Below, in pieces: positions 874 through 18,897 of a stretch of 64,000 nt of DNA (its first letter is position 1; each line of letters begins with the position of its first letter). The notes below the pieces were generated by a model. It searched no databases, had not been told where the DNA came from, and was given only the letters and a program-made list of their open reading frames with translations. Source of the DNA: Candidatus Doudnabacteria bacterium (GTDB taxonomy: Bacteria > Patescibacteriota > JAQUNI01); the NCBI GenBank assembly GCA_041644975.1, contig JBAZQX010000002.1:84603-148602 (forward strand), given 5' to 3'. The position numbers and the translations under genes are program-made.

Positions 874-891
874 GAAGGTTAAATAAGAAAA

Positions 892-1260: not shown

Positions 1261-1276
1261 TCAATAATTTACTCAA

Positions 1277-5005: not shown

Positions 5006-5070
5006 AAAGGGGGAGATGTCCCTCCAGAGGCGGGCAAGCAGGTACCATTAATTTACCCATGACCATTGCA

Positions 5071-5115
5071 ATAGATAAATATAGTAAGTAGCGTGGTGGG
5101 GTAAAAATTGCTATA
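5071..5115 (+). repeat. repeat family B (GC-rich palindromic element), truncated copy
   Basis: atatagtaagtagcgtggtggggtaaaaattgctatactgaag. Retains the ends (atatagtgagtagc ... ggggtggggtaaaat) but lacks the central palindrome. Confidence 0.6.
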
Positions 5116-5123
5116 CTGAAGTT

Positions 5124-5306
5124 ATGAAAAAATATCCTCTGGGCCTATATGTAATTGGTGTTATTATCGTTCTCGTGCTTATAAACTACATCGCGTGGTT
5201 CGTGGGAGGAGAGGCGAAGTTAAAAAGTTTTGAACTACTCTCCGGCGGCTTTTTGTTAGGAATGCTGGCAATGTATATAGCGGTGCATATCTATCGGTGG
5301 AAATAA
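5124..5306 (+). CDS. small hydrophobic membrane protein (hypothetical)
   Basis: 60-aa ORF with two predicted TM segments. It lies inside an intergenic repeat region, so it could be spurious. Confidence 0.3.
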   Translation: MKKYPLGLYVIGVIIVLVLINYIAWFVGGEAKLKSFELLSGGFLLGMLAMYIAVHIYRWK

Positions 5307-5404
5307 GAGACCTTATTGAACACCAAATTGTCTCAAATCCGGCATGTAAATATACTCATTTTGTCGCTGGATAATAGTTCTAACATTGTCCACCTAGGGG
5401 AAGA

Positions 5405-5544
5405 GGTTTTATTAAAAAGTTTCGAAAGGAGTTATACCTATTTGTAAAATATTTTGAAAACAAGTGTTTTCTTGCATAATCTTTATTTTTTCTTTTATTG
5501 ATTTATAGATTTTGATTAGTTTAGAAGATAGGTAACCCGCGGAG
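5405..5544 (+). repeat. intergenic repeat family A, copy 2
   Basis: ttttattaaaaagtttcgaaagg...gaaaacaagtgttttcttgcataatctttatttttt...gatttatagattttgattagtttagaagataggtaacccgcggagc, followed by an A9 tract. 100 bp upstream of the SPFH gene. Confidence 0.8.
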
Positions 5545-5644
5545 CTAAAAAAAAATTGCCATTTGAGCAGTTTTTGGTAGAATGAAATTAGTAGAATAAA
5601 AAAGGTCGAAGGATTTAAAAATTAAATTTTAACAAAATAAAAAT

Positions 5645-6457
5645 ATGGATAATATAAATGTAAGCCAAAGAATAAAAGACATAAAACCAGGAAAAGTTAT
5701 CTCCTGCATAATTATTGGAGTGTTTGTCCTAACGTTTATCCTTAGTGCTTTTGGAACCATAGGAGCGGGTGAGCGAGGAGTGCTTCTTCAGTTTGGAGCA
5801 GTTCAAGATAAAGTATTTAATGAGGGGCTCTATTTTAAAATACCGTTTATTCAGAAAGTAGTGAAAATGGATGTAAAAATTCAAAAAGATGAAATCCCAG
5901 CAAGCGCTTCTTCTAAGGATCTACAGGTAGTAACTTCTAGAATTGCTTTGAATTATCATCTTGATCCAAGCGTAGTAAATAAAATCTGGCAGGAGGTGGG
6001 GAAAAATTACAACACCCGTATCATTGCTCCTTCTATCCAAGAAGGAGTGAAAGCGGTAACGGCAAAATTCACAGCCGAGGAATTGATTACCAAAAGAGAA
6101 GAAGTGAAAGAACAAATCAAAGCAAATCTTACTGACAGATTATTTGAACATGCCATTATAGTTGATGAGTTTAACATTATTGATTTTGAATTTTCGCCAG
6201 CATTTAATGATGCCATTGAATCTAAAGTTAGAGCCGAACAGCTAAAACTTAAAGCTGATAGAGATTTAGAAAGAATAAAAATTGAGAAAGAACAAATGAT
6301 AGCGGCTGCTCAAGGTAAGGCAGAAGCTATCAGAATTGAAGCGCAAGCATTAATGCAGAATCCTAAAGTGGTAGAACTTCGTTGGATAGAAAAGTGGGAT
6401 GGAAAAGTTCCAACTTACTGGGGAGAAGCAAGTCCATTTATCGGAATAAATAAGTAA
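5645..6457 (+). CDS. SPFH/band-7 (prohibitin/HflC-like) family membrane protein
   Basis: 270 aa with N-terminal TM. GERGVLLQFGAV...FKIPFIQKV...DV matches the SPFH domain core. C-terminal coiled-coil region rich in AEQLKLKADRDLERIKIE. Confidence 0.9.
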   Translation: MDNINVSQRIKDIKPGKVISCIIIGVFVLTFILSAFGTIGAGERGVLLQFGAVQDKVFNEGLYFKIPFIQKVVKMDVKIQKDEIPASASSKDLQVVTSRIALNYHLDPSVVNKIWQEVGKNYNTRIIAPSIQEGVKAVTAKFTAEELITKREEVKEQIKANLTDRLFEHAIIVDEFNIIDFEFSPAFNDAIESKVRAEQLKLKADRDLERIKIEKEQMIAAAQGKAEAIRIEAQALMQNPKVVELRWIEKWDGKVPTYWGEASPFIGINK

Positions 6458-6473
6458 AATAATGAATGGATTT

Positions 6474-6517
6474 AAAAAATCGTCTTTTTGGCGATTTTTT
6501 GATAAAATAAAAAAAGA
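6474..6517 (+). terminator. family-C hairpin acting as terminator of the SPFH gene, followed by TGnTAAAAT-like box
   Basis: aaaaaatcgtctttttggcgattttttgataaaataaaaaaag lies 17 nt after the stop at 6457. Stem atcgtc/ggcgat followed by T6. Confidence 0.6.
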
Positions 6518-6520
6518 TAT

Positions 6521-6560
6521 AGTGAGTAGCAGAGTAGGGTATACCCGAAATGTCAGACCA
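6521..6560 (+). repeat. repeat family B, truncated copy
   Basis: atatagtgagtagcagagtagggtatacccg, immediately after the family-C hairpin that terminates the SPFH gene. Confidence 0.55.
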
Positions 6561-6775
6561 GCGCTAATAATTGTCTAACTTGTGCTATAATAACTTCAGG
6601 AACAGGACAAGCTCTCTCCTATTCAAAAGTTCTAAAGCTGTCCTGCCAAGCGAGCTATGAAAAGCTTAAATGATATTCCAAAAGTTTGCAGTGCGTGCGG
6701 CAGTAGAATGCTAATAGTAAGTTGTTAAAGCTATTTTAAAGTTTGCGAATCCTTTCAAAAAGTAGTTCTTATTTC

Positions 6776-6808
6776 GCACGGTCATTCATAAAAGACCGTG
6801 CTTTTTTT
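6776..6808 (+). terminator. rho-independent terminator-like hairpin in an ORF-free region
   Basis: gcacggtc-attcataaaa-gaccgtgc followed by T7. About 320 bp downstream of the nearest + gene stop, which suggests an unannotated small transcript. Confidence 0.6.
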
Positions 6809-6924
6809 GTATTTATTTTTTGATTACTTAAATATATTTAGCATTTGTAAGAGGAAGATTTTCAAATTCTTTCATGATTTTGTACCAATCTATTGTCCTG
6901 AATGTGTCCAATAGGGGGAGCAAA

Positions 6925-6957
6925 TAAAAAATCGCCCGAAAGGCGGTTTTTTGATTA
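6925..6957 (+). repeat. family-C-like hairpin (stand-alone)
   Basis: aaaaaatcgcccgaaaggcggttttttgattag inside the ORF-free 6480-7110 region. Confidence 0.45.
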
Positions 6958-7112
6958 GTATATTTAATGAAATATATTTGACACTTTAATGAGTTATGGA
7001 GAGAATTAAAAGCTGAGTATATATTGTCTTTGCTGTCATTATAAAATAATTAATATTACATTTTCAGAGTTTCCTTCCTCTTTTCGGGTAAAGTATAGAG
7101 TCTTAATGATTT

Positions 7113-7865
7113 ATGATTTTTATTACTAATATTTTAAAATTCGTCGCCATCATAATTGTTTTTTTGTTAGCGCCGATATCATTTTTAATAATTTTTTTAA
7201 TTGCTAATTCAGAATATAGAAAAGAGAAAAATCATAATAAAGATTGTAATATTTTTCATATACTTGATGATTATTTTGAGATAACTAAAAAGCTAATTAA
7301 AAAATTAACTAAGTTAGATTTTTTTGATTGGATCAACCTTATTTTGTTTCTCTCGGGAATAATATTGATGGCATCATTCAGGTATTTTTATAAAATATCA
7401 TATGAGCAGTTATTGACAGTCATTATTTTATGGTTTACAGGGATTGCTATTTTACAATACACCAAAGAAACATACTGGTTAAGACAATTACAGCAAAAGA
7501 ATTTAAAGTTACAACGAGAGCATTTAAAATTTGAGAGAGCACCTTTCGTTATTATTCATTTCGAGAAGCCAGAAACATTTATATTGAAAAACGTCGGGAA
7601 GGGCGTTGCTCGTAATGTTCGATGGGAGGTTAGAGGCGAAAAATTTATATATCCAAGAAAGACCGTAATTTCTCCAAATGAAGGATCAACATGGATTCAA
7701 AATGAGGGTTACAGAAAATTTAATCCAGCAGAAAGTAATAAACCGTATGAGATCATAATTGTTTATGAAGATTTAAGCGGGATTAAATATTATACTAGAC
7801 TAAAGTCTGGTGAAACGGTTGATGACTATGAAGTTTTAAACTATTCTGAATATTTTGAAAATTGA
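7113..7865 (+). CDS. hypothetical membrane protein
   Basis: 250-aa ORF with 3-4 N-terminal TM helices followed by a soluble C-terminal domain. No recognisable motif. Confidence 0.5.
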   Translation: MIFITNILKFVAIIIVFLLAPISFLIIFLIANSEYRKEKNHNKDCNIFHILDDYFEITKKLIKKLTKLDFFDWINLILFLSGIILMASFRYFYKISYEQLLTVIILWFTGIAILQYTKETYWLRQLQQKNLKLQREHLKFERAPFVIIHFEKPETFILKNVGKGVARNVRWEVRGEKFIYPRKTVISPNEGSTWIQNEGYRKFNPAESNKPYEIIIVYEDLSGIKYYTRLKSGETVDDYEVLNYSEYFEN

Positions 7866-7888
7866 ACCTAACAAATCAGCAAATTTAA

Positions 7889-8075
7889 GGTAAGGTCTTG
7901 AATCGTGAATCCCCGTTCCTTTTTTATTGTAGAATATATAGTGAGCCACGGGGTGGGGTAAAATTTGATAAACTAAGATTGCTGTTTTAAAACAGTAATG
8001 TAAATATATTCATTTTGTTGCCTAATAATGGTTCTAACCCTTCGGCAAGCTCAGGGCAAGCTATTATTTACGATG
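7889..8075 (+). repeat. composite repeat: terminator-like hairpin + family B (short form) + downstream conserved tail (gtaaatatattcattttgttgcctaataatggttctaaccc ttcggcaag...)
   Basis: ggtaaggtcttgaatcgtgaatcccc-tttttt-attgtagaatatatagtgagccacggggtggggtaaaatttgataaactaagattgc... The tail segment recurs at 5335-5400, 15150-15330 and 17895-17945. Confidence 0.7.
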
Positions 8076-8225
8076 TGGAGCAAATTAAAATAACTGCTTA
8101 TCGATGCGGTTATTTTTTTGATATCCAGAATTGGATTTAAACTCTTTAATTTCTTCGATTTAAATAACCTGCTATAATAAAAATATCCCCCAAGCAAGCT
8201 ATAGTTGGGTAATTGATTAATTATT

Positions 8226-8729
8226 ATGAATAAGCATTTAAAAGTTAAATCTTTCCAAGAAACTTTAAATGCCGGCATGTGCGGGCCGGCTTCTTTGAAA
8301 ATTTTGCTATCTTACTACGGGATTAAAAGGGACGAAAAAGAGTTGGCAGATTTATGCGGAACAAAAAAGGGTTTAGGCACTGATGATCAAGGGATAAAGA
8401 GAGTAGCCGAAAGTTTAGGATTCAAGGTAAAAATAAAAAACAACAGCAGTTTTAAGGATATAGAAAGATGGCTAGATAAAGATGTGCCTATTATTGTAAA
8501 TTGGTTTACTCGTGGAAGAGCGGATTATACGGACGCAGATGTTCCAGATGGCCATTATTCAGTGGTTTGCGGAATTGATGATCAATCTATTTATTTACAG
8601 GATCCGGAAATAGGCAGGATCCGAAAAATCAAAAAAAATGATTTTAAACGAGTATGGTTCGACTTCTCCGGCGAACTGATCAAACCCAATGAGCTCATTA
8701 TTATGCAGATGATTGCTATATATAAATAG
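8226..8729 (+). CDS. stand-alone C39-like cysteine peptidase domain protein
   Basis: 167 aa. CGPASLKILLSYYG (Cys in the Q/C-box-like context) and GHYSVVCGIDD (His) follow the typical peptidase C39 domain layout. No ABC transporter is attached. Confidence 0.7.
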   Translation: MNKHLKVKSFQETLNAGMCGPASLKILLSYYGIKRDEKELADLCGTKKGLGTDDQGIKRVAESLGFKVKIKNNSSFKDIERWLDKDVPIIVNWFTRGRADYTDADVPDGHYSVVCGIDDQSIYLQDPEIGRIRKIKKNDFKRVWFDFSGELIKPNELIIMQMIAIYK

Positions 8730-8815
8730 GGAGTAGCGGGTCACGTCGTTCGCGAACGACGTGGCGGGGTGGGGTAAAACCTAATAGATTAGGCTCGTCG
8801 AGAGTGGATTTTTTT
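8725..8815 (+). repeat. repeat family B, copy with 11-bp-stem palindrome
   Basis: agtagcgggtcacgtcgttcgcgaacgacgtggcggggtggggtaaaacctaatagattagg. Palindrome cacgtcgttcgcgaacgacgtg. Overlaps the stop of the 8226 gene. Confidence 0.8.
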
Positions 8816-8936
8816 TAAAAAGTTTCAAAAGGTTGTAAAATATTTTGATAACAAGCGATTTTTTGCATAATCTTTATCTTTTCTTTGATTGATTGATAGA
8901 TTTTGATTAGTTTAGAAGATAGGTAACCCGCGGAGC
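8810..8936 (+). repeat. intergenic repeat family A, copy 3
   Basis: ttttttaaaaagtttcaaaagg...gataacaagcgattttttgcataatctttatctttt...gattgatagattttgattagtttagaagataggtaacccgcggagc. Directly follows a family-B copy. About 215 bp upstream of the 9153 gene. Confidence 0.8.
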
Positions 8937-8946
8937 CAGAATTCCA

Positions 8947-8978
8947 GAAATCGCTGCTTTGGCGATTTTTTTATAGAG
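8947..8978 (+). repeat. family-C-like hairpin directly after repeat A copy 3
   Basis: gaaatcgctgctttggcgatttttttatagag. Stem atcgc(t)/(g)gcgat plus T7. Confidence 0.45.
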
Positions 8979-9152
8979 TGAGAATAGATTTATTGAGATT
9001 AATATCGATAGAAATGCCAAAAAGCAAGACCTGATCACGAGATTGTAATGGTGGATTTATTTCCATGACCGTGATATAAAGAGGTTGTCACAGAGACAGT
9101 ATTAAGTCCGTAACATTTAACACTGGGTAGTTTTCCAGGGAGGATTTTCGAA

Positions 9153-9842
9153 ATGAAAGTATGGTTGAGTGTCATAGTTTTAATAATCTTTAGCGTATTA
9201 GTGGCTTATGGCGCGGGCGATGAGAAGATCCCGGGCATAGAGAATGGATTACAGCTTTCCAAGAATCGCTTTGCGCCGCCTGAACAGAGGTATTCTTATG
9301 AAGGCGTATCGCGGGTGCCGAGTAGCTGGAAGATGGTAAATGCCAAAGGTCAGGCGGTTATTGCTACCGAGAAAGCAAGCAAGAAGCCAATCGGGCAAGG
9401 TATTTTGCTCTTTAAAGAGACGGTCTATGTGCAGACCGAGTTTGCGCCGCCCGAAGGGCCATGGTCTTTCCAGACAGCGATAAATTTTTCCTTACATGGC
9501 GGCTATGTCGTTTTTAATAATTTTGAGACATGGAAGGATGAGTTTGTTTATCCAGATACGCTCAATAAAGTTCAGGGTTTGCCTACGCAGGCGACTGCTA
9601 AAAACAAAGCAGGCAAAACCCTTGCTTCGGTCAAAGTGTTGCGCTTTATCGTCGATGCAGGTTCTAATCAATTCGTCGGCGTTGAGGTTGTGGAAACGCA
9701 TTTCGGTCAGAATGGTAAAGTAAGTTTCCGTTGCGTTTCCCAGTTTGAACATCCGTCAGGCTTGAAGCGGTTTGAGAAGGTACTCTCGGGCAAGAAGGAG
9801 AAAGAGTATTTTCCGATTTGGCCGGTAAGCACGATTATGTAA
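9153..9842 (+). CDS. hypothetical secreted protein
   Basis: 229-aa ORF with a signal peptide (MKVWLSVIVLIIFSVLVAYGAG). Noticeably GC-richer than its flanks. Confidence 0.55.
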   Translation: MKVWLSVIVLIIFSVLVAYGAGDEKIPGIENGLQLSKNRFAPPEQRYSYEGVSRVPSSWKMVNAKGQAVIATEKASKKPIGQGILLFKETVYVQTEFAPPEGPWSFQTAINFSLHGGYVVFNNFETWKDEFVYPDTLNKVQGLPTQATAKNKAGKTLASVKVLRFIVDAGSNQFVGVEVVETHFGQNGKVSFRCVSQFEHPSGLKRFEKVLSGKKEKEYFPIWPVSTIM

Positions 9843-10010
9843 ATAATGCCCGTAATACCCATCTGTTGGCGGGTCGCTTTGGCGGGCTAACTAATGCATT
9901 CAGGACCAAAAAGAACTTGGAGGGTATAATTATTAATAAATTATTACTTTGCAGTTGTCCTATCTCTCTCTTAATAATTCTATTTTGGAAGAAAGAGCAA
10001 GGGATAATTA

Positions 10011-10042
10011 GGGTCAAGTTTTGAAACTTGACCCCTTTTTTA
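10011..10042 (+). terminator. rho-independent terminator
   Basis: gggtcaag-ttttgaaa-cttgaccc followed by T6. Confidence 0.7.
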
Positions 10043-10116
10043 TTGACTTTTAGGAAAATTAGTTTAATATGGGGGTTAGTTTAGTTAGTTCATTAAACTT
10101 GGTTCAATAAGAGAAG

Positions 10117-10917
10117 GTGACAAATATGAATCTACGATCTTGGTTTCAGAGAAGATATGTAAATGAGATGGTAAAAGTTTTAATTGAGGATGATAGAAAA
10201 TGCCAAGAACTCATCAGGAGAGTAGAGGCGGATTATGGGGTCAAAATAAAGCTACCGGACTCAAACAGCATACCAAGTTGTTTTCTCGTTGATATGCTGG
10301 AAAGAGCCTTTACAACTGGAAAGATTGTTTTACCTCCGAAGATTACCGTCCTTGATTTCGGGTGCGGCGATTGGTTCTATGCCCCCTTTTTACTGGGTTT
10401 TCTAAAACATTGGCAAGGATTCAGGGAGGTTTGTCTGGAGGGGATTGATTTTCCCAGTCGGAAAAATAAAAGGTCCCTACGCCGATTGCAGAAAGGAGAA
10501 CTTGATTTAAGAGTCCATTGGGGCGACATTATGAATTTGTCCCAAGAGAACAAATACGACATAATTTTTGCAAGCCATATGGTTGCTGGGCCCCATCATT
10601 GTAAAATGTGGGGGGTTCCTTATTACAAGCCCAGTATATTGTTCTCTTATTTACAATCTTTAGGAAAGCCCGACTGCTTGTTCGTTGTAATAGCTTATGA
10701 ATATGCTGGAGAAGACGCGATTTTTCGTTGCTTTAAATCAAAGTTAACAGAGTTTTTCTATCAACCTCTGGTCGAAAAAAAGTTTAGTTCCTTTCTTTAT
10801 AATCGTCGCGGCTTTCATGACAACTCAATTTGCATCAGCAGGTCTCCATTTGTGGACCTAGAAGCATGCACGAGATATGAAGAGGAGATTGAGGAAATGG
10901 ATGCAATACTTTATTAA
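10117..10917 (+). CDS. putative class I SAM-dependent methyltransferase-like protein
   Basis: 266 aa. Motif I-like VLDFGCGDW. An acidic residue ends the following strand (LEGIDF). DIIFASH resembles motif II. Weak, fold-level call only. Confidence 0.5.
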   Translation: MTNMNLRSWFQRRYVNEMVKVLIEDDRKCQELIRRVEADYGVKIKLPDSNSIPSCFLVDMLERAFTTGKIVLPPKITVLDFGCGDWFYAPFLLGFLKHWQGFREVCLEGIDFPSRKNKRSLRRLQKGELDLRVHWGDIMNLSQENKYDIIFASHMVAGPHHCKMWGVPYYKPSILFSYLQSLGKPDCLFVVIAYEYAGEDAIFRCFKSKLTEFFYQPLVEKKFSSFLYNRRGFHDNSICISRSPFVDLEACTRYEEEIEEMDAILY

Positions 10918-10921
10918 ACAA

Positions 10922-10952
10922 AGGACGGCTCTATCGGGAGCGTCCTTTTATA
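10922..10952 (+). terminator. rho-independent terminator after the 10117 gene
   Basis: aggacggctctatcgggagcgtcct followed by ttttat. Starts 5 nt after the stop. Confidence 0.6.
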
Positions 10953-10984
10953 ATTTTAAAGATTACCATTATTTGTTCCGTCTG

Positions 10985-11100
10985 AGATATAGTGAGTAGC
11001 AGTTCATGTCGTTCGCGAGCCCCGTCGCTCTTGAGCGACAGGGCGAGCGACGTGGCGGGGCAAGGTAAAATATGATAAACTAAGCTCGCGGATTTAAATC
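10985..11100 (+). repeat. repeat family B, long form (extra internal hairpin)
   Basis: atatagtgagtagcagttcatgtcgttcgcgag-ccccgtcgctcttgagcgacagggcgag-cgacgtggcggggcaaggtaaaatatgataaactaagctcgcggatttaaatcagg. The internal ccccgtcgctcttgagcgacagggcgag insert is identical to that in the 17.8-kb copy. Confidence 0.8.
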
Positions 11101-11137
11101 AGGAGATATTTTCACTAAAAATATTAAAACAAAAAAT

Positions 11138-13138
11138 ATGAAATGGCGCGTGATTTTATTTATTGTTTTTTTCTGGCTCGTCGCGGGAAAAATAGAGGCC
11201 GCTCAAGTGACCATCAACGCAACCGCGGATACCTATGTGAACTCTTATGCGCCGACCCAAAATTTTGGCAGCGTGGGTACTCTGGAGGTGCGCTCGCGCG
11301 ATATTTCCCGCTCGAGTTTTCTCCAGTTTAATCTTTCCCACTTTATTCCTTTAGATGCGACGGTGACCAGGGCTTACTTGAAATTATATCTTTTTGACAA
11401 TTTTTGTTATACCAATGCCACCGCGCCGATGAATATCAGAATCTATCGGGTATCCGGTCGTTGGTCTGAACAGAGTATTACTTACCAGAGCCAACCCGAT
11501 GCTTCTACCGTGGACGGCGCAAGTCTTACGCTCCCTTTAAATTCTGATGCGGGGTATAAAACTTGGGATGTCACGAACATTGTTAAGGGTTGGATTGATA
11601 ACCAATATCTTAATTATGGTTTGCGCACCTATTATTATTCGGTAAATAATTGTCAGGCCACATTTTATGCCCGTGAGACCGGGGAAGGAATGAAGCCTCA
11701 GTTAGTTGTTGAATATACGCCGCCTCCGGACCGCACCCCGCCGCAGATTAGGGAAGTTTCAGCCGAAGTAACGGCGGCGACAGCGACCATTCGTTGGAAG
11801 ACATACAATGACCCCTCTTCGAGCACGGTTGCTTACCGGCGGCCGGGAGCACAGCTTTGGCCAATCCAGAGCGCCGGGGGTTTAACAGTTGATCACAGTG
11901 TAACTTTAACCAATTTACAACCCCAAACACTATATCAATACACGGTGAAATCCAGAGACGCGGCAGGCAATGAAGCAGTTTCCGCGGTTTTAGAATTTAC
12001 CACGGCAGAGGCTGAAGATCTGACCGCGCCGGATATTTCCAATGTGAATGTTAATCACCTTTCAAGCCGTGCGGTAGAAATTATTTGGAGCTCGCAGGAA
12101 GAGGCGACAGGAGAGGTACGCTATAGTACAGATCGCCAACGCGTATCCATTGCCACCCAGGCGGGGCTCAAGACCAATCATACCGTGCGGTTGGAGCCAT
12201 TGTTACCCGCCACAACTTATTATTTTGTAATTAACTCGGAAGATGCCCGGGGGAACAGGACAGTCCGCGAGGAGGATCAATTTACTACGCAGGCGGACGC
12301 TGCCGCTGGAGAAGAGGATGGAGAGGAACAGGATGAGGAAGAGGATTATAATCCTCTTTCCATTTACAATATTATCTTGGATGTCTTGAGCCCGACTAGT
12401 ATGCGGTTCAAGTGGTGGAGCACAATTGACGGCACCTCTTGGGTGTTTGCTTCGGCAGACGCGGATGACGCGACATCGATTGAAGATTATGAATTTGTCG
12501 CGGGGCGCAATGATGGAGTAGATATGCACGAGGTTGTCTTGAACAATCTTGCGCCCGCCACAACCTACAGCTATCGTGTTCTAACGCGCAGCGCGGATGA
12601 TCAAGCGGATCTTTCAGAACTTAAAACTTTTCGCACTGACGCCCAAGCTGCTCCCGAGGCTGCGGGTGAGCAGCCTGAGGCGCTTCCCCCACTGCCGGCC
12701 GAACCCGATAGCACTCCGCAAGATCAAGTCCCAGAACAAATTACTGATCCGGCGGTGATTGAAGAGATTCGGCACCAGGCTCAAGAGGCAGAGAAAAAAG
12801 AGAGTCTGGAGCCTGCCATAGCAGAGGAGAAAGAGAGTTCGGAACCTGCCGTAAAAGAAAGTGAAAATTTGGAAGATGAGGATCAAAAGCCAGCCGGCTT
12901 GGGCTCAAAGTTTTTACTTATTTTATCGCGCTTCTGGGTTTGGATTATTCTGGGGGGCGTTTTTTTCCTTGCTTTGCTGGGTGTGTTACTGTATTTATTA
13001 TTACGCAAGAAAAAAGGCGGTGAAAATAGGGAGGCAAATCCTATCGCGTCGCAACCAAGCGGGGCAGTACCGAGCCAGACAGTGGCAGAACAAACAGTCA
13101 GCCAGACCCCCCAGCCCCAAAAGCCCAAAAAGAGCTAA
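11138..13138 (+). CDS. type-I membrane-anchored surface protein: DNRLRE-like N-terminal domain + 3 fibronectin type III repeats + acidic linker + C-terminal TM anchor with basic/Pro-rich tail
   Basis: 666 aa. Signal peptide. ADTYVNSYAPTQNFG...YLKLYLFD is a DNRLRE-type motif. Three FN3-like units (e.g. TLYQYTVKSRDAAGNEA). EEDGEEQDEEED acidic linker. C-terminal TM (FLLILSRFWVWIILGGVFFLALLGVLLYLLL) followed by RKKKGG. Confidence 0.8.
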   Translation: MKWRVILFIVFFWLVAGKIEAAQVTINATADTYVNSYAPTQNFGSVGTLEVRSRDISRSSFLQFNLSHFIPLDATVTRAYLKLYLFDNFCYTNATAPMNIRIYRVSGRWSEQSITYQSQPDASTVDGASLTLPLNSDAGYKTWDVTNIVKGWIDNQYLNYGLRTYYYSVNNCQATFYARETGEGMKPQLVVEYTPPPDRTPPQIREVSAEVTAATATIRWKTYNDPSSSTVAYRRPGAQLWPIQSAGGLTVDHSVTLTNLQPQTLYQYTVKSRDAAGNEAVSAVLEFTTAEAEDLTAPDISNVNVNHLSSRAVEIIWSSQEEATGEVRYSTDRQRVSIATQAGLKTNHTVRLEPLLPATTYYFVINSEDARGNRTVREEDQFTTQADAAAGEEDGEEQDEEEDYNPLSIYNIILDVLSPTSMRFKWWSTIDGTSWVFASADADDATSIEDYEFVAGRNDGVDMHEVVLNNLAPATTYSYRVLTRSADDQADLSELKTFRTDAQAAPEAAGEQPEALPPLPAEPDSTPQDQVPEQITDPAVIEEIRHQAQEAEKKESLEPAIAEEKESSEPAVKESENLEDEDQKPAGLGSKFLLILSRFWVWIILGGVFFLALLGVLLYLLLRKKKGGENREANPIASQPSGAVPSQTVAEQTVSQTPQPQKPKKS

Positions 13139-13310
13139 GGATGTATTATTGCCTTTTTCTTAATTAATTTTGCTCTTTTTTTGAGGGCATTCTTCTAAAC
13201 ACAGTTTGAAAAGGAAATTTTAAATATATTTGAAATTCCAAAGATATTTCTGGATTAAGATTTATTGTTAAAGATAAGACAAATATTATTAAGGTAATTA
13301 ATTTGGAAAG

Positions 13311-14279
13311 ATGAAAAAGATTTCAATAATTGGATTGATTGCAGGTATTTTAGTAATTGGAGCTATTGCTTTTTTCTTGTTAAATTCTTCTTCAGAAGAG
13401 GAGAATAATGTGGGCCAAGAATCAGAAATTTTTTGCGCAGATTACGATGGAAATCAGCAAGAATGTTTATCCCATTCAGAATGTAAGTGGAGTTCAGATA
13501 TGAATGAATGTGATTCAACAGATATGGTTGAGGAAGAAGATGGTGGAGGATTTAAACAAGAATTAGAAAATATTGCTGTTCCAAATAATCCCTCAAATAC
13601 TCTTTGTAAAAAAATACCTTTGTCAGGTAAACCTCCTTATAGCGAAAGATATTACTGTTTAGCGGTTGTAAATCATGATGAAAGATTTTGTGAAGGGATT
13701 GATGAAGAAAAGGGGAAAAATATTTGCTTAGCCCATGCGAAAGCAGACCCCTCTTATTGTAAAAAAATCCAAGAAGATTCAGCTAAACATGTTTGTTATT
13801 ATATGCTTGCAGTATCAAGCAAAAATGCTGATTTTTGTAGTGATATTAGTTATAGTCAACATGAAAAAGAACAATGCTATTTTAATTTTATGAGTAATTT
13901 ATATCAGTGGGATAAATCTGATGAGATAAAAACAGAATACTGTAATCAACTTGATACTCCAGATAAAAATACTTGTCTTGCATTAAAGGCGAGAGATATT
14001 TCTCTTTGCGGAGATAATCCTCATTGTTTGACTTTTTTTGAGCAAGATTTGTCTTTTTGTGATGAACATCCTGAAATAGATGGTTGCATAAAAGATAGGG
14101 CAAAGACAAGTAAAAATGTGTCAATTTGTGAATTACTTCCCCAGCCAGATAGAGATAGCTGTGTTGGGGTTTATTGCACCCACACAGAGCTTGATGTTAA
14201 TATTTGTGATACAATTGAGGGCATTAAAGAAAGACAAGACAGGTATATAGAACTTGCAATGAATTTAGGTAATTGGTAA
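13311..14279 (+). CDS. secreted cysteine-repeat protein (paralog A)
   Basis: 322 aa with a signal peptide. About 24 Cys in a periodic C-x10/11-C pattern (YYCLAVVNHDERFC, NICLAHAKADPSYC, HVCYYMLAVSSKNADFC ...). Paralogous to the 15502..16311 protein. Confidence 0.7.
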   Translation: MKKISIIGLIAGILVIGAIAFFLLNSSSEEENNVGQESEIFCADYDGNQQECLSHSECKWSSDMNECDSTDMVEEEDGGGFKQELENIAVPNNPSNTLCKKIPLSGKPPYSERYYCLAVVNHDERFCEGIDEEKGKNICLAHAKADPSYCKKIQEDSAKHVCYYMLAVSSKNADFCSDISYSQHEKEQCYFNFMSNLYQWDKSDEIKTEYCNQLDTPDKNTCLALKARDISLCGDNPHCLTFFEQDLSFCDEHPEIDGCIKDRAKTSKNVSICELLPQPDRDSCVGVYCTHTELDVNICDTIEGIKERQDRYIELAMNLGNW

Positions 14280-14374
14280 AAATTTAATGCTGCAGAATCC
14301 TAAAAATTTGTTTTGCTTTTTTATTAATTCTGATTCAAAATTCAAATACAGTAATTTTTTGATAGAATAAGATC

Positions 14375-15112
14375 ATGAAAAATCCAGAAGAAATAAAAAA
14401 AATTGTTAAAAATAAGTATAAAGAAATAGCCGTCAGTGATTCCGGTTGCGGCTGTGGTTGCGGAGGCGCGCAGGATATTGCTAAAAGCATAGGTTATTCT
14501 GAAGAAGATTTAAAAACGGCAGGAGCAGCGAATCTTGGTCTTGGTTGCGGCAATCCTGTAGCCTTTGGTAAAATAAAAGCGGGGGATATTGTTTTGGATT
14601 TGGGGTCCGGCGCCGGTATAGATTGTTTTTTGGCTGCGAAGAAAGTAGGCAGCACAGGTAAAGTGATCGGTATTGATATGACAAGAGAAATGGTTGAAAA
14701 AGCAAAGGATAATGCCGAGAAACAAGGGATTAAGAATGTAAAATTTATTTTAGGAGAAATAGAGGATTTGCCCCTTAAAGATAATTTGGTAGATATTATC
14801 ATTACCAATTGCGTTGTTAACCTTACTCCCAATAAGACCAAAGCTTTTCAAGAAGCATACAGAGTTTTAAAGCCAGGAGGAAAAATTTATCTTTCAGACA
14901 TTGTTTTATTAAAAGAGCTTTCAGAGGAACAAAAAAACAACAAAGATTTATTATCCGGTTGTGTCGCGGGCGCTTTATTAAAAGAAGATTATCTAAATAA
15001 GATAAAGAATGCAGGATTTAAGGCACGGATTCTACATGAAAATAAAAAAATTGGTAAAGAACAATATCATGGGATCGCCCTTGAAAATTTAATGGTTGAA
15101 TTGGGAAAATAG
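14375..15112 (+). CDS. arsM: arsenite S-adenosylmethionine methyltransferase (ArsM)-like SAM-dependent methyltransferase
   Basis: 245 aa. N-terminal Cys cluster [22 protein letters not shown] motif [30 protein letters not shown] with the conserved Cys. Overall layout matches the ArsM/Cyt19 family. Confidence 0.75.
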
Positions 15113-15501
15113 ATATCTGCGTTTAAAGAATTAATTTCAGCAATGAATTTTTTCTAAACACCCATCAAACACGTTCTAAACCTTCGGCAAAGTTTACAGT
15201 GAGTTCATCGAACTGCTTGAGGGCAGGCTCGTCCCGAGGCCGTTCAGGCTCGAGGAGACTCAGCTCCTTCGACTGTGGGGTGAACAGCCCGAGGGGCTAT
15301 TGTTCACGATGCGGCGTAACATTAGATGGATTCAAATCTTTTTAGTAAAGGATGTCGTTCGCGAATGACATCCTAAAAGATAATTCACAATTTTTTGACC
15401 TGATCCCATTCTCTCTTTGTTTTTAGCCTTTCTTTCGTTGACTTGGTCTATATTGAATTTTGATTAAATAGTATTATTGATCATTTCATTAAGATAAAAT
15501 T

Positions 15502-16311
15502 ATGGGAAGAAAGTTTTTATTTTTTTGGTTTATTTTAATTGTAATAAGTATTATCGGTTTTTTATTTATTGTAAACAATAAGCCTTCAAATAATAAGCCT
15601 TCTTCTGAAGAAATAAAAATTCTCGATGACAAACCAAATTCGATTTGTCAAAAAATTACTTCGGCAGAGTCCAGATTTTTTTGTTTGGCTTTTGTGAATA
15701 AAGATGAAACTTTTTGCAATCGGATTGATGGTGACGGGAAAAATAGCTGTTTAGCCGCTGTGAAAAATGATTCTAAGTTTTGCCAGGAAATATCAAATAA
15801 AAACAAGCAATTTTGTTATCAAAATTTAGTTAGCGTGACCGGGAAAAGCGATTTTTGCAGTGAAATGACGGAAAAAAGAGACATCAGTTCCTGTTATGTC
15901 CATTTTGTAAGCACTAATTTTCTTGCTTCTAATTTTGACCTTCTAAACCAAAAATTGTGCGAGCAGATTATTGATAACTCACCGGAGAAAACCTTATGTC
16001 TTGCCATGGTAAATCAAAATCCTGATGTTTGCGGTCCGGAGAGAAATGACTGCGCGGCATTTTTTAGTAAAGACGAGTCTACCTGCATAAAATCTGCCTC
16101 GGAGATAGATAAGGCAGAATGTTATCATGCTTTGGCGATGTTAACTAATAATAGTTCTATTTGTGAAAAAATTAGCGATTCCAATCAAAAAGACGATTGT
16201 TATAGGGATTATGGCAGAATCAGTGAAGATACTATAATATGCGATAGGATATCCAATGTTATGTTAAAGGGAGAATGTTATAAGAATGTTGCGATTCATC
16301 TTGTAAATTAA
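15502..16311 (+). CDS. secreted cysteine-repeat protein (paralog B)
   Basis: 269 aa. Signal peptide. Same periodic Cys repeat (RFFCLAFVNKDETFC, NSCLAAVKNDSKFC, QFCYQNLVSVTGKSDFC ...). Confidence 0.7.
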   Translation: MGRKFLFFWFILIVISIIGFLFIVNNKPSNNKPSSEEIKILDDKPNSICQKITSAESRFFCLAFVNKDETFCNRIDGDGKNSCLAAVKNDSKFCQEISNKNKQFCYQNLVSVTGKSDFCSEMTEKRDISSCYVHFVSTNFLASNFDLLNQKLCEQIIDNSPEKTLCLAMVNQNPDVCGPERNDCAAFFSKDESTCIKSASEIDKAECYHALAMLTNNSSICEKISDSNQKDDCYRDYGRISEDTIICDRISNVMLKGECYKNVAIHLVN

Positions 16312-16367
16312 AACTTGACCTTTTTTATTTCTATGCACTTTGCAGACAGATTCCACCAAAGGGAGCT

Positions 16368-16410
16368 AAAAAAATCGCCAAAAGGGCGATTTTTTGGTAA
16401 AATAAAAAAG
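16368..16410 (+). promoter_or_regulatory. family-C module: atcgcc-aaaa-gggcgat hairpin + T6 + extended -10-like TGgTAAAAT, about 30 nt upstream of the ATG
   Basis: aaaaaaatcgccaaaagggcgattttttggtaaaataaaaaag. Near-identical 80-bp block, including the first codons ATGCATTTRAAAAAT, at 21470-21555. Confidence 0.5.
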
Positions 16411-16435
16411 AGTTCATTAAAATAAAAACAAATCT

Positions 16436-16918
16436 ATGCATTTAAAAATAAGATACATTTTTATCCCTTTTCTGGTGATTATTATTGTAGGAATTGGCGT
16501 ATATATTTTGCTTTCAAAGACAAAAAAGGAGTCCTCTAAAACCCTAGAGATAACTAAAATTACTTGGGTATTGGAAAAAGCGGGCGAAGATAGCGAGACG
16601 GGAGCGCCGCTTACAAAAGTAAAAGCAGATTTCAAAGGCGGAATCAATAAAGGATATGACGCGGGGGTTTACGCTGGAAACTGTTTTGAGATTGCCAAAT
16701 CCGAATGGGAACTTTTAGAAAATGAAATTTCGGGAGTGATTTGCTGGTGGGCAGGCGGGGGAGATGAGATTGGCATTTTTAAGGAAGATGATAAACTGGT
16801 TATCGAACACGGGACGCTTAGCGCGGGTGGTCCTGCTACAGAAGATGAGCCGGCCATACCGAATTTCAGAGGCGACTTTGAAAAGCTTTTTGAAATGAAA
16901 GGAAGACCTGTTTTTTAA
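16436..16918 (+). CDS. hypothetical secreted/membrane-anchored protein
   Basis: 160 aa, starting MHLK. Its 5' region and first codons are shared with the gene at 21541 (repeat family C). N-terminal TM. Confidence 0.5.
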   Translation: MHLKIRYIFIPFLVIIIVGIGVYILLSKTKKESSKTLEITKITWVLEKAGEDSETGAPLTKVKADFKGGINKGYDAGVYAGNCFEIAKSEWELLENEISGVICWWAGGGDEIGIFKEDDKLVIEHGTLSAGGPATEDEPAIPNFRGDFEKLFEMKGRPVF

Positions 16919-16943
16919 CCCCAATAAAAAGAAGTATTATTTT

Positions 16944-17687
16944 ATGAAGAGAATCCATCTTTTATTTTTTTTATTTATTGTAATTGCCGTAATTATTTTA
17001 CTGATTTATATTTTTTCTGAAAAACCAAAATCATCCTTGCCCCAAAACAATCTCCCCACGGCTCCAACCAGCGAGCCAGGGCAGAAAAGTAATTCGCCAT
17101 CGGTTTCGGGTACAGAGCCAGGGTTGCAGCAAACTCAACCCAACAATGCAAATGTCGGAGATACTGACAAAGGAAGTGCAGGTATTTTTCAACCTCCTTT
17201 AGAGAGAGCGATGGAAAGGGTACTTAAGAAAAAATTTGGTATGTATATTACCCCTCAAAATTCGCCAGTGCAGCCAGAAAGATTTCAAGGATATCACACG
17301 GGAGTTGACTTTGAAATTTTCCCCGAGGAGTTAAACGCGGAGGTCCAAGTCCATGCGGTTTGTTCGGGAGAACTAAAATTAAAAAAACACGCGTCTGGTT
17401 ATGGAGGAGTCGCGGTTCAGGCTTGCGAATTAAATAAAGACCCGATAACTGTGATCTACGGACACTTGAAATTGTCTAATATCACTGCTGATGTTGGAAC
17501 AAATATCAATGTTGGCGAAGTAATTGGGATTCTAGGAGCCGATAAAAGCGTGGAGACAGACGGTGAACGCAAGCATTTACATTTAGGTTTTCATAAAGGA
17601 ACAGCGATAGATATTCGAGGTTATGTGAGTTCAGAAGCAGAACTCGCTAACTGGATTGATCCTTGTCTTTATGCTTGTCATGATTAG
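16944..17687 (+). CDS. M23 family metallopeptidase (LytM-like)
   Basis: 247 aa. N-terminal anchor. HTGVDF (HxxxD) and HLHLGFH (HxH) M23 active-site motifs. Gly-rich beta region. Confidence 0.75.
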   Translation: MKRIHLLFFLFIVIAVIILLIYIFSEKPKSSLPQNNLPTAPTSEPGQKSNSPSVSGTEPGLQQTQPNNANVGDTDKGSAGIFQPPLERAMERVLKKKFGMYITPQNSPVQPERFQGYHTGVDFEIFPEELNAEVQVHAVCSGELKLKKHASGYGGVAVQACELNKDPITVIYGHLKLSNITADVGTNINVGEVIGILGADKSVETDGERKHLHLGFHKGTAIDIRGYVSSEAELANWIDPCLYACHD

Positions 17688-17739
17688 AGTAATAAATTTT
17701 GAAAAATGCTCGCGGTTATAATATAAAAAAGAGAAATTT

Positions 17740-17772
17740 GGGGTCAGGTCTTGAAATTTGCCCCTTTTTAAT
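17740..17772 (+). terminator. conserved terminator hairpin (ggggtca..tgacccc type) preceding family B
   Basis: ggggtcaggtcttgaaatttgcccc + T5. Same sequence at 18688 and 21427 and similar at 7889 and 10011, so the terminator itself is a repeated module. Confidence 0.65.
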
Positions 17773-17774
17773 TT

Positions 17775-17900
17775 CTACAATATATAGCGCGAGTAGCGGG
17801 CCACGTCGCTCGCGAGCCCCGTCGCTCTTGAGCGACAGGGCGAGCGACGTGGCAGGATGGGGTAAAATCTGATAAACTAAGATTGCGGACTTAAATTTAG
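17775..17900 (+). repeat. repeat family B, long form
   Basis: atatatagcgcgagtagcgggccacgtcgctcgcgag-ccccgtcgctcttgagcgacagggcgag-cgacgtggcaggatggggtaaaatctgataaactaagattgcggacttaaatttagg. Preceded by the ggggtcaggtcttgaaatttgcccc T5 hairpin. Confidence 0.85.
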
Positions 17901-17959
17901 GATGTAAACATATTCATTAAACAGGGCATCCCTCTTTTTACAAGAAAACCCAAAAATTT

Positions 17960-18625
17960 ATGATTTTTTTAATTGTCGGACTTTTAGCTTATCTTATTTT
18001 TCTTCCGCTTTGCTTTGCTATTTTATTTTTGGTTGCTAGAAAACAATATAAAAATTATTCGGTTTTCACTTTTTGGCTAAGCAATCTTGGCGCGAAAAAA
18101 TCGCGCAGCCGCCTTATCTTCAATGTTTGTTCCTTTGTTTCTGGTTTATTGAATTTATTGTTTAGCTGGATATTATTTAAAATTTTGCCCCAAACATTAT
18201 TGACTCTGGCAATGTTAATATTTTTTTCGCTGTCCGCCCTGCTTACTGTTCTTATTCCTTTTTTCCCGATGGACAAGAAAAGAAAAGCCCACGAAATAAT
18301 CGCTAACATTTTATTTTTTTGTATTTTAGCAGCTTGTTTGTTATTTACTTATTTTAATTTGATTTCACAAATGTTTCCCGCATTTTTAACTATTTTGAGT
18401 TTGGCTGCGGTTGTTTTTTCTCTTTTAGTAGTCTATTCTTACTTGAAATTAAAAGGAAAATATGGAGGCCGGGCAATGGGGGATTTGGTTTTTGAAAGGA
18501 AAAAAGAAAAGTCCTGTATTTTAAAGAATGCCACGCTATGGGAGTGGCTTGCCTTTTCTTCGGTGATTGTTTGGCTTTTTGCCTGGACCATTTGTCTTTT
18601 GAGCTTTTTGCTTCACGGACGTTAG
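17960..18625 (+). CDS. hypothetical polytopic membrane protein
   Basis: 221 aa with about 6 TM helices. No motif recognised. Confidence 0.5.
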   Translation: MIFLIVGLLAYLIFLPLCFAILFLVARKQYKNYSVFTFWLSNLGAKKSRSRLIFNVCSFVSGLLNLLFSWILFKILPQTLLTLAMLIFFSLSALLTVLIPFFPMDKKRKAHEIIANILFFCILAACLLFTYFNLISQMFPAFLTILSLAAVVFSLLVVYSYLKLKGKYGGRAMGDLVFERKKEKSCILKNATLWEWLAFSSVIVWLFAWTICLLSFLLHGR

Positions 18626-18687
18626 TCGGAGGATATTGACAAAAAAGGGCGAAAAAGGGAACGCATAAAATCAGCGCGAAGGGCATA

Positions 18688-18720
18688 GGGGTCAGGTCTT
18701 GAAATTTGACCTCTTTTTAT
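18688..18720 (+). terminator. conserved terminator hairpin after the 17960 gene
   Basis: ggggtcaggtcttgaaatttgacctc + T5. Confidence 0.65.
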
Positions 18721-18782
18721 TTCTACAATATATAGCGCGAGTAGCGGGCCACGTCGCTCGCGAGCGACGTGGCGGGGCAGGC
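18721..18782 (+). repeat. repeat family B, short form
   Basis: tacaatatatagcgcgagtagcgggccacgtcgctcgcgagcgacgtggcggggcagg. Perfect 13-bp-arm palindrome ccacgtcgctcgcgagcgacgtgg. Preceded by the same terminator hairpin as at 17740. Confidence 0.85.
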
Positions 18783-18852
18783 ATCATCTACACAAGCGAG
18801 CAAAAGTTTTTTATAAACCGAGCTATTTGCTTGGAAAGTCTTTTTATAAAGT

Positions 18853-18894: not shown

Positions 18895-18897
18895 CTT

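Follow-up and report, generated by a model that had tools for sequence, protein, structure and literature searches.

The family B repeats are probably two-layer composites, in which lineage-specific, nested palindrome insertions sit in an old promoter-like box. Seven copies (c1–c7) occur in the window, i.e., the whole 64,000-nt stretch of DNA analysed. All are intergenic and on the + strand between positions 5080 and 18782, and each starts 0–108 nt past the stop of the preceding + strand ORF. The earlier note, which had counted at least seven copies in 14 kb, each 3' of a gene stop, was right in this respect; its three nested size classes are exact, at 28, 56 and 84 nt with one additional copy of 86 nt, and the medium-form palindrome and the inner hairpin of the long form have the sequences it described.

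Copies in the window

The copies and associated features are as follows.

5080–5107, + strand: c1, empty box TATAGTAAGTAGCGTGGTGGGGTAAAAA, 28 nt (nhmmer E = 7e-9)
up to 5117, + strand: −10-like box of c1, TGCTATACT, with TATACT at 5112–5117
6473–6497, + strand: conserved terminator hairpin preceding c2
6518–6545, + strand: c2, degenerate empty box TATAGTGAGTAGCAGAGTAGGGTATACC, 28 nt (nhmmer E = 0.012)
7937–7964, + strand: c3, empty box, 28 nt (nhmmer E = 1.7e-15)
7966–7977, + strand: −10-like TGATAAACTAAG directly past the c3 box
8725–8780, + strand: c4, medium form, 56 nt (box plus one 28-nt unit)
8740–8765, + strand: perfect palindrome GTCACGTCGTTCGCGAACGACGTGGC of c4, GCGGG at either side
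10010–10035, + strand: terminator hairpin GGGGTCAGGTCTTGAAATTTGNCCCC, further copy
10988–11071, + strand: c5, long form, 84 nt
11004–11055, + strand: outer stem of c5
11019–11044, + strand: inner hairpin of c5
11073–11084, + strand: −10-like TGATAAACTAAG past the c5 box
15350–15373, + strand: orphan palindromic unit GGATGTCGTTCGCGAATGACATCC, outside any box (fold z = −4.4)
17740–17765, + strand: conserved intrinsic-terminator hairpin GGGGTCAGGTCTTGAAATTTGNCCCC with T-run, preceding c6
17783–17868, + strand: c6, long form, 86 nt (84 plus a CG duplication)
17800–17853, + strand: outer palindrome of c6
17816–17841, + strand: inner hairpin of c6
17870–17881, + strand: −10-like TGATAAACTAAG past the c6 box
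18688–18713, + strand: terminator hairpin GGGGTCAGGTCTTGAAATTTGNCCCC, further copy, preceding c7
18731–18782, + strand: c7, medium form (box head and palindrome, diverged 3' end)
18748–18773, + strand: perfect palindrome of c7, 26 nt
21426–21451, + strand: terminator hairpin GGGGTCAGGTCTTGAAATTTGNCCCC, further copy

The short end motifs by themselves are not above chance; what makes the seven sites distinctive is the presence of both end motifs in register. Allowing up to three mismatches, the palindrome core has 11 matches where 0.40 would be expected (0 of 100 shuffles reached this); all of them fall within c4–c7, and these four copies together with the orphan span about 10 kb. The remainder of the window and the 10 kb upstream contain no further family B copy. 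The pattern is unlike that of a genome-wide interspersed family: the copies are few and clustered, with 7 per 14 kb and 0 in about 60 kb more of the same genome, and the closest genome has 1 copy in 37 kb, the lineage sequence examined amounting to about 110 kb in total. The earlier note described the genome as AT-rich; the window, with a GC content of about 40%, is only moderately so. Because independent ENA, Logan and NCBI assemblies contain the same sequences, the copies are not assembly artefacts.

Anatomy of the palindromic unit

One size step corresponds to a 28-nt unit made of a 23-nt GC-rich palindrome and a 5-nt direct repeat. Box lengths are 28 nt in c1, c2 and c3, 56 nt in c4, 84 nt in c5 and 86 nt in c6, and the gaps in an alignment of 11 copies (A2) are 28 and 56 columns long. 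The outer unit is located at GCGGG, which stands at both sides of it in c4 and c7, and a diverged copy (79% identity between the inner and outer 28-mers) is nested in its centre at GCGAG, which stands at both sides of the inner unit in c5 and c6. The arms of 11 nt with fixed 5-nt direct repeats thus have the form of terminal inverted repeats with a target-site duplication, and the perfect 26-nt palindromes of c4 and c7 fall within the size and stem-loop range of REPs (GC-rich palindromes of 20–40 nt).

The folding and covariation checks suggested by the earlier note gave hairpins of −21 to −48 kcal/mol with z-scores of −2.2 to −5.6. Stem cells are paired in 93% of cases and both sides have changed in 6 of 11 pairs, which none of 500 shuffles equalled.

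Individual copies carry further detail. The outer stem of c5 has three C-to-T changes in its left arm. In c4 the TAG at 8727–8729 is the stop codon of a C39-peptidase-like gene (ORF 8226–8729), and in c7 GGCAGGCATCAT, a sequence that relatives also have upstream of the ATPase gene, takes the place of the 3' box half. GTAG lies 3–4 nt 5' of the stem in c4–c7; since the same GTAG, or GTGG, is present in the empty boxes of c1, c2, L057, L069 and L073, it is not carried by the inserted unit. The orphan at 15350 has TAAA(G) as its left flank and TAAAA(G) as its right flank, an AT-rich site and not GCGRG. The palindromes were also considered as intrinsic terminators and rejected: the hairpins are followed by GGCGGGGTGGGG and have no U-tract, and the terminator scan calls the upstream GGGGTCAGG hairpins, not the palindromes.

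An older box with a −10-like element

Together, the conserved ends of the copies make up a box of 28 nt, TATAGTGAGTAGCGGGGTGGGGTAAAAT, and an extended −10-like element, TGATAAACT, comes after it; the box consensus is AATAGTGAGT-NNN-GGGGTGGGGTAAAAT. Judged from sequence comparison, these ends are an older, lineage-wide box and not the termini of a mobile element. In other Patescibacteria contigs the box and the −10-like element occur with the palindrome absent, so the short form, previously taken for the minimal element, is an empty site. A metagenome scan with only the 3' flank as query returned 17 loci, about 11 of them with the box and none with the palindrome. This first layer would be an old conserved intergenic module of a Doudnabacteria-like lineage, placed just past the terminator of the upstream gene. 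About 20 nt separate the box from the terminator hairpin, which closes the upstream gene unit; the terminator hairpin and TACAATATATAG box that the earlier note placed before copies are shared by c6 and c7, with 92% identity over 86 nt (family D15). At c3 the copy runs on into the second conserved half of the backbone (7997–8116).

The box and −10-like element most likely constitute a portable sigma-70-type promoter, a prediction consistent with several features. Relatives have TTGAGG or TTGAAA within the box, 17 nt upstream of TAAACT. An ATG lies 6–11 nt past the −10 in two copies, a leaderless geometry: in c1 the ATG of a 60-aa ORF is 6 nt past TATACT, and in L073 an ATG follows TAAACT 11 nt on. 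In L057 the box is directly upstream of a gene. In the window the −35-like hexamers (TAGCGG) are poor, and a consensus scan made no call there.

States of orthologous sites

Among relatives, four states are found at orthologous sites, namely empty, medium, long and a footprint-like one of 38 nt. Downstream of the methyltransferase-like gene, the site is empty (28 nt) in L073 (79% amino acid identity) and long in L066, L067 (96%) and the window, and in L074 (83%) it has a footprint-like allele of 38 nt, GCAGG+CCGTG+GCAGG, in which both repeats are retained. At the site preceding DUF998, L069 has the empty and the window the long state; at the one preceding the ATPase gene, the window has the medium and L065 (96% identical) the long state. 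Because these states vary among relatives, the palindromes appear to be lineage-specific REP-like or GC-cluster-like insertions, and on this comparative evidence the units are gained and lost whole, as 28-nt blocks. The original REP- or MITE-like reading therefore holds for the GC palindromes, with their discrete 28-nt units, 5-nt junction repeats and strain polymorphism; the element as it was drawn is a composite.

Proposed origin of the copies

The second layer would be confined to the strain lineage of the window. A 23-nt GC-rich palindrome, YCACGTCGYTCGCGARCGACGTG, would have entered the box at GCGGG, leaving this 5-mer at both sides, and a diverged copy of the same unit would later have entered GCGAG at the centre of the first; an outer insertion followed by a nested one would account for the lengths of 28, 56 and 84 nt. 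Insertion would restore a near-identical 8-mer at the −10 side (GTGGCGGG replacing GTAGCGGG), so that the promoter-like geometry would be kept and the insertion tolerated. The units would thus behave like selfish hairpin DNA of the REP or mitochondrial GC-cluster type, and they may have spread by means of a trans-acting enzyme or through gene conversion and slippage from box to box. Since slippage deletion could equally well act on the 5-nt repeats, the direction of change cannot be read from them. The boxes may also have a role in shuffling the flanking gene cassettes, whose borders (described below for DUF998) coincide with them.

Independent insertions may number just three (outer, inner and orphan). 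Long flanks are shared by c5 and c6 (113 nt at 85%, D11) as well as by c6 and c7 (the D15 module), so part of the copy number is due to duplication of whole modules. Among about 55 window ORFs there was no Pfam match to a transposase, RAYT or integrase, and none of these was present among the called genes of L059, L061 and L066; PF01797-type proteins (RAYT, Y1 HUH transposase) were likewise absent from both sets. No IS or transposase with these termini was found in the sequence examined. An exact-pattern scan of 185,579 species genomes gave chance matches only, in GC-rich genomes, and viral contigs gave no matches.

Alternative explanations

Several pieces of evidence suggested that the palindrome boxes could be hairpin recombination sites of an integron-like or Xer-like cassette exchange, with cassettes entering and leaving at the palindromes: (i) The genes of the array are unrelated and all run in one direction, with the elements 3' of the ORFs, and palindrome length varies. 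(ii) Boxes stand at the borders of gene cassettes that vary among strains, and regional gene order differs strongly between genomes that are 95–96% identical. (iii) The DUF998 gene is flanked by direct repeats of terminator, box head and palindrome; the gene is missing in L065 and L061 and has at least four other contexts elsewhere, and strains without it have a single copy of the repeat. (iv) In relatives, strain breakpoints fall at fixed points of a neighbouring conserved module, with recombinase genes just downstream. However, the box exists and recurs without any palindrome, the core sites RYYYAAC and GTTRRRY are absent, and the stems pair perfectly, lacking extrahelical bases. A search of the 74 kb around the array found no recombinase (the 10 kb upstream of the window contains dnaG, rpoD and bAvd), the cassettes differ from those of integrons in that every one has a terminator and a promoter-like box of its own, and ordinary homologous recombination between repeated modules of 90–200 nt would account for the same junctions. 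We consider such sites unlikely. A broader version, in which the box, with or without the palindrome, and the neighbouring conserved GTTCTAAC-ATTGTCCACGATGC module would form the recombination platform of an undescribed Patescibacteria cassette exchange, is similarly doubtful. Self-contained promoter-gene-terminator cassettes such as that of DUF998 would then be moved between a few hairpin-marked sites, much as in integrons or pdif modules but with different sites and a putative recombinase.

The elements could instead be small structured RNAs, as the earlier note had offered, or stabilisers of 3' ends that act in the RNA. Transcription would come from the TACAAT/TATAG box or be due to read-through, and selection would keep the hairpins at the RNA level. 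The hairpins are strong, their stem pairs show the compensatory changes noted above, and several mismatches would be G-U pairs on the + strand (c5, L066 and the orphan); c4 has no other terminator before it and would lie in an mRNA 3' end as REP stabilisers do (PMC3733652). Against this, a whole-window search of Rfam 15 gave 0 matches at the gathering threshold, positions 4900–19000 gave three chance-level matches at E up to 5, all outside the family B copies, and relatives gave tRNAs only. The hairpins are missing, and hence dispensable, at orthologous sites of relatives, and the + strand mismatches (5 of G-U type versus 3 of A-C type) have no strand bias. In addition, c5, c6 and c7 lie downstream of intrinsic terminators, the hairpins lack a U-tract, and DNA palindromes can stay symmetric without an RNA function. 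An RNA-level role is thus improbable.

Least probable is a purely local segmental duplication, in which one filled module was copied around the locus and nothing was ever mobile: every copy does lie inside 14 kb and the c5/c6 and c6/c7 flanks are shared, but the exact 28-nt differences at orthologous sites of different strains, the 38-nt allele, the nesting of a copy that has 5-nt repeats of its own, the orphan unit and the empty boxes in distant contigs are left unexplained, and the orthologous-site series already largely refutes it.

Significance

Patescibacteria (CPR) have small genomes and are uncultured, and to our knowledge their promoters, repeats and gene-moving mechanisms are almost unstudied. 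Promoter prediction in this group could be anchored on the box, which is promoter-like, portable and sharply conserved, and the natural series of empty, footprint, single and nested states of a tiny palindrome would allow the birth and loss of REP-like DNA to be followed in metagenomes. The array consists of strain-variable genes for surface and membrane proteins whose borders coincide with the modules, which points to a way in which the cell surface of such symbionts may become diverse. If the palindromes are only selfish insertions, their practical value is modest; they break short-read assemblies and could mislead annotation.

Comparison with known systems

Integron attC arrays resemble the present array in having variable-length, imperfect or perfect palindromes 3' of same-strand ORFs of unrelated function and in a content that varies between close strains. 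As attC sites the elements were rejected: they lack R''/L''/L'/R' core sites, and there is no complementarity between their ends, TATAGTGAGTAGC and GGGGTGGGGTAAAAT. Neither IntI nor attI nor Pc was found, with no integrase in the window or the 10 kb upstream, and the cassettes here bring their own terminators and promoter-like boxes. The 23-nt unit, with two 11-nt inverted arms and 5-nt direct repeats, is formally like a bacterial MITE, but it is several-fold smaller than described MITEs (about 50–500 bp), has no internal sequence, and no parent IS or transposase was found for it.

GTAG-tagged REPs (Di Nocera et al. 2013, PMC3733652; Nunvar et al. 2010, PMC2817692) are closer. Like the units here, they are GC-rich palindromes of 20–40 nt with GTAG a few nucleotides 5' of the stem, stems of 12–13 bp are shared with the GTAG-24 family, and they lie downstream of ORFs and between codirectional genes, with G-T pairs and compensatory changes in the stems. 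Some REP families also have variable self-complementary loops of up to 27 bp and hence nested size classes (PMC3733652, PMC2817692). The differences are that GTAG is here part of a pre-existing box and present in empty sites, that there is a handful of copies versus more than 100 per genome (a high genome-wide copy number was not seen in the sequence examined), that head-to-head or tail-to-tail dimers (BIMEs) and a RAYT were not seen, that the units have 5-nt junction repeats, and that the host is a Patescibacteria genome, a group with no REPs in the 2013 survey (PMC3733652) or in the literature searched.

Yeast mitochondrial GC clusters (GC42; Wu and Hao 2015, PMC4478555) belong to an unrelated genetic system with no sequence homology. 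They number tens to hundreds of copies and have a 2-nt (AG) duplication versus 5 nt here, where insertions are also concentrated at one position of one conserved box. In both systems, intergenic DNA of higher AT content contains short GC-rich palindromes with duplicated target nucleotides at either side; these are present or absent at homologous positions among strains, leave footprints that retain both target copies, and can merge or nest, and their stems are constrained.

Copy lengths and the palindromic unit

Seven Family B copies (c1–c7) lie where the earlier note placed them, all on the + strand and 0–108 nt past a stop codon. The palindrome core has 11 matches in the window against 0.40 expected by chance, and an nhmmer profile built on the conserved ends recovered the same seven sites. 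Across the window's other 45 kb and the 10 kb preceding it, that search gave no convincing match. From (A/T)ATAG to TAAAAT, c1, c2 and c3 span 28 nt, c4 spans 56 nt, c5 84 nt and c6, in which one CG is additional, 86 nt; c7 belongs to the medium class but differs in its 3′ part. The three nested size classes reported earlier are thus exact multiples of a 28-nt step, and the original observation is real and sharper than drawn. A short-read contig of the window strain (L002; Logan SRR8449827, 922 nt) has one end inside c6 and the other inside c7; de Bruijn assemblies break at the palindromic modules.

The 28 nt added in c4 and c7 comprise a 23-nt unit, (T/C)CACGTCG(T/C)TCGCGA(A/G)CGACGTG, with GCGGG on either side. 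Nested at the exact centre of this unit in c5 and c6 is another of 23 nt, CCCCGTCGCTCTTGAGCGACAGG, bordered on each side by GCGAG; counted with its repeat, the inner unit shares 79% identity with the outer 28-mer. An orphan unit at 15350–15373 lies outside any box, flanked by TAAA(G) and TAAAA(G). Folding confirmed the predicted fold for all units. In an alignment of eight distinct units, a small set with related members, 93% of stem cells are paired and 6 of 11 pairs are altered on both sides, values matched by none of 500 shuffles. A DNA palindrome can stay symmetrical without selection on RNA, and the stem mismatches read on the + strand (five G–U-type versus three A–C-type) give no strand signal.

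The box and its backbone

JGI metagenomes queried with the 3′ flank alone (GGTAAAATNTGATAAACTAAG) yielded 17 loci, of which about 11 are real. All of the real loci have AGAAATAGTGAGT...GGGGTGGGGTAAAAT-TGATAAACTAAG at the 28-nt length of the box, and none of their boxes holds a palindrome. In most, the box makes up the first half of a conserved ~130-nt backbone that continues as YTTGYGGAYTTAAATCTGG-ATGTAAATATAYTCAKTTTGTC...ATAATGGTTCTAAC-ATTGTCCACGATGC; the backbone's second half is present in the window at 5341–5401 and 7997–8081. An exact-pattern scan of 185,579 species-representative genomes for GTAGC...palindrome gave chance matches only, none of four viral-contig scans gave a hit, and the backbone had no blastn match in phage and plasmid collections. 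The earlier interpretation was half right: the palindromes are insertions resembling REPs or GC clusters, but what was called the "short form" is an older promoter-like box that holds no palindrome.

We infer from sequence that the box functions as a promoter. Hexamers resembling −35 elements occur with a 17-nt spacer 5′ of TAAACT at three loci (TTGAGG in L056, TTGAAA in L044, TTAAGG in L045), and the TG of TGATAAACT is consistent with an extended −10. In c1, 6 nt separate TATACT from the ATG of a 60-aa ORF, and in locus L073, 11 nt separate TAAACT from an ATG; this would be a leaderless geometry, sensible only with a genuine −10. Genes lie directly 3′ of the box in L053 and L057, and the rpoD gene adjoins the region. 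The window copies have only TAGCGG as a −35-like hexamer, and a simple consensus promoter scan did not call them because this −35 is weak. Insertion replaces GTAGCGGG in the box with GTGGCGGG, so the sequence beside the spacer is nearly unaltered, which may explain why a palindrome is tolerated at one position.

The second half of the backbone has a promoter-like TTGTGG-N16-TAAATA and ~45 conserved nt (CATTTTGTC...ATAATGGTTCTAAC-ATTGTCCACGATGC), mostly followed by an intrinsic terminator, and looks like a small transcription unit. Further GC-rich inserts, from a 24-nt unit (CCTTCGG-N7-9-AGGGYAAGC) up to ~200 nt, occur at fixed backbone points directly 3′ of GTTCTAAC or of CATTTTGTC.

Backbone second halves and GC-rich inserts in the window and in relatives
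Window 5341–5401, second half
Window 7997–8116, second half
Window 15160–15335, second half
Window 24400–24710, second half
L054 7855–7917, second half
L045 3187–3249, second half
L061 13365–13540, second half
Window 8039–8062, insert
Window 15170–15298, insert
Window 24430–24630, insert
L061 13379–13484 and 9832–9880, inserts
L057 1501–1560, insert

One such insert site is filled in L061 (13370) and empty in the window (24645), and in this lineage the insertion of GC-rich DNA into intergenic modules richer in AT seems to be general. The larger inserts 3′ of GTTCTAAC, when folded, had no convincing structure in common. In two pairs of related contigs (L046 versus L054, L045 versus L048) homology stops exactly 4 nt past ...CACGATGC, and a serine-recombinase remnant (L054) and a 197-aa tyrosine recombinase (L056 990–1583) lie downstream. 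This fixed end point and the downstream recombinase genes suggest that the second half serves as an attachment site, either in itself or as an sRNA gene co-opted for that use.

Gene setting and orthologous sites

The window, from an uncultured Patescibacteria (CPR) bacterium, has a GC content of ~40%, and its sequence is also present on ENA contig ERZ27249422 k141_31134. Its P-type ATPase is identical to one listed by NCBI under Candidatus Doudnabacteria. Every gene from 0 to 58 kb is on the + strand, and in the first 22 kb Pfam scans and ORF calls gave a mixed set.

Genes in 0–22 kb of the window, all on the + strand
HYR/GLUG giant surface protein
60-aa membrane peptide
SPFH protein
Two C39-like peptidases
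Methyltransferases
CBM96/fn3 protein
Cys-rich paralogues
M23 peptidase
DUF998 protein
P-type ATPase

Neither a transposase nor an integrase nor a RAYT turned up in Pfam scans of ~55 window ORFs; the window also lacks tRNAs and, at gathering threshold, Rfam families. The two Cys-rich secreted paralogues (13311–14279 and 15502–16311) have no Pfam match but have repeated segments of CxxxC type in common (repeat family D20). The 10 kb upstream of the window (L059) contains dnaG, rpoD and a gene for bAvd, a diversity-generating retroelement accessory protein. The bAvd gene is immediately 3′ of rpoD (L059 6503–6883), about 3.0–3.4 kb upstream of window position 1, and a relative has the same arrangement (bAvd at L066 7392–7772).

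Three sites could be compared between strains: site 1, 3′ of the methyltransferase-like gene (c5); site 2, upstream of DUF998 (c6); and site 3, upstream of the ATPase (c7). At site 1 the alignment runs through all 85 nt upstream of the box, which makes the sites orthologous.

States of three orthologous sites
Site 1, window: long form
Site 1, L066 and L067 (96% protein identity): long form
Site 1, L074 (83% protein identity): 38 nt, GCAGG-CCGTG-GCAGG
Site 1, L073 (79% protein identity): empty 28-nt box
Site 2, window: long form
Site 2, L069 (88%): empty 28-nt box, downstream sequence same as the window's
Site 3, window: medium form
Site 3, L065 (96%): long form, same flanks; clean 28-nt difference from the window
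Site 3, L061 (95%): box absent

Given these states, the palindromes are confined to the window strain and the strains nearest to it, and they change in whole units. The 38-nt allele of L074 retains both 5-nt repeats plus the 5 outermost nt of a unit. Slippage is known to delete precisely between 5-nt repeats on either side of a hairpin. We favour insertion as the origin of the palindromes because the more distant relatives have empty boxes. L069 also has a second empty box, immediately 3′ of a GGGGTCAGG terminator.

Cassette borders and neighbouring repeats

Compared with GCA_028717685.1 (loci L061 and L066; proteins 95–96% identical to the window's), window segments 1–10033, about 14360–16371 and 17707–18775 are missing or relocated, and the methyltransferase-like gene, c5 and the CBM96 gene lie as a block at another position. 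A single Family B copy lies in 37 kb of that assembly, versus seven in the window. Family B is a local cluster at cassette borders and does not resemble a genome-wide interspersed family. DUF998 is flanked by direct repeats of terminator, box head and palindrome (c6, c7); L065 has a single such module and lacks the DUF998 gene, homologues of which occur in at least four distinct neighbourhoods. The pattern fits recombination, homologous or site-specific, within the repeated modules.

Two sequence-conserved families of intrinsic terminators recur in the window's genome and in relatives (L061, L062, L063, L068, L069): GGGGTCAGGTCTTGAAATTTGACCCC (window 10010–10035, 17740–17765, 18688–18713, 21426–21451) and AAATCGCCAAAAGGGCGATTTTTTG followed by GGTAAAAT (6473–6497, 6929–6953, 16372–16396, 21471–21495). 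Strain homology often breaks immediately 3′ of these terminators. A 109-nt AT-rich repeat with a GATAGGTAACCCGCGGAGC end (window 1723–1831, 5442–5550, 8833–8941; L069 2540–2672) has no Rfam match; two window copies are 92% identical, and a terminator lies 3′ of the copy in the relative. A separate hairpin family, ACCCCGTTAGAAATAAATTTCTAACGGGGT, has five window copies (37296, 48559, 50242, 60568, 60924) and occurs in relatives (L061 13260, L065 2865).

Comparison with known systems

Several other readings were rejected: (i) The reverse complement of TATAGTGAGT matches the T7 promoter ACTCACTATA, but a − strand T7-like promoter would have a 2-nt insertion in its motif in c6 and c7, a T at +1 and an antisense run into a terminator. 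(ii) A dif/Xer site around ATGTAAATAT has 9 of 11 positions of the XerD arm but lacks a matching XerC arm and dyad symmetry, and strain breakpoints are ~60 nt off. (iii) For a diversity-generating retroelement target hairpin, bAvd is upstream, but no TR/VR-type repeat is near any copy. (iv) A tRNA-like TAATG-GTTCTAA-CATTG stem is blank in ARAGORN, and its 5′ arm varies without compensating change in the 3′ arm. (v) The G-tracts of a G-quadruplex from GCGGG...GGGGTGGGG are not kept in relatives (AGGGTAGGG, AGAATAGGG). (vi) A riboswitch or leader is dismissed with mutually unrelated downstream genes and a blank Rfam search.

The units are not terminators, match no known RNA family in Rfam and lack every sequence feature that defines integron attC sites; we found no description in the literature of repeats of this kind in CPR bacteria. 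They are most like GTAG-tagged REPs, which have stems of 6–13 bp, in some families self-complementary variable loops, and positions downstream of ORFs (PMC3733652). Unlike REPs, the units are few in the sequence covered and the tag appears not to belong to the repeat; no RAYT was seen among ~55 window ORFs (Pfam). They also resemble the GC clusters of yeast mitochondria, for which target duplication, footprints and mergers are described (PMC4478555).
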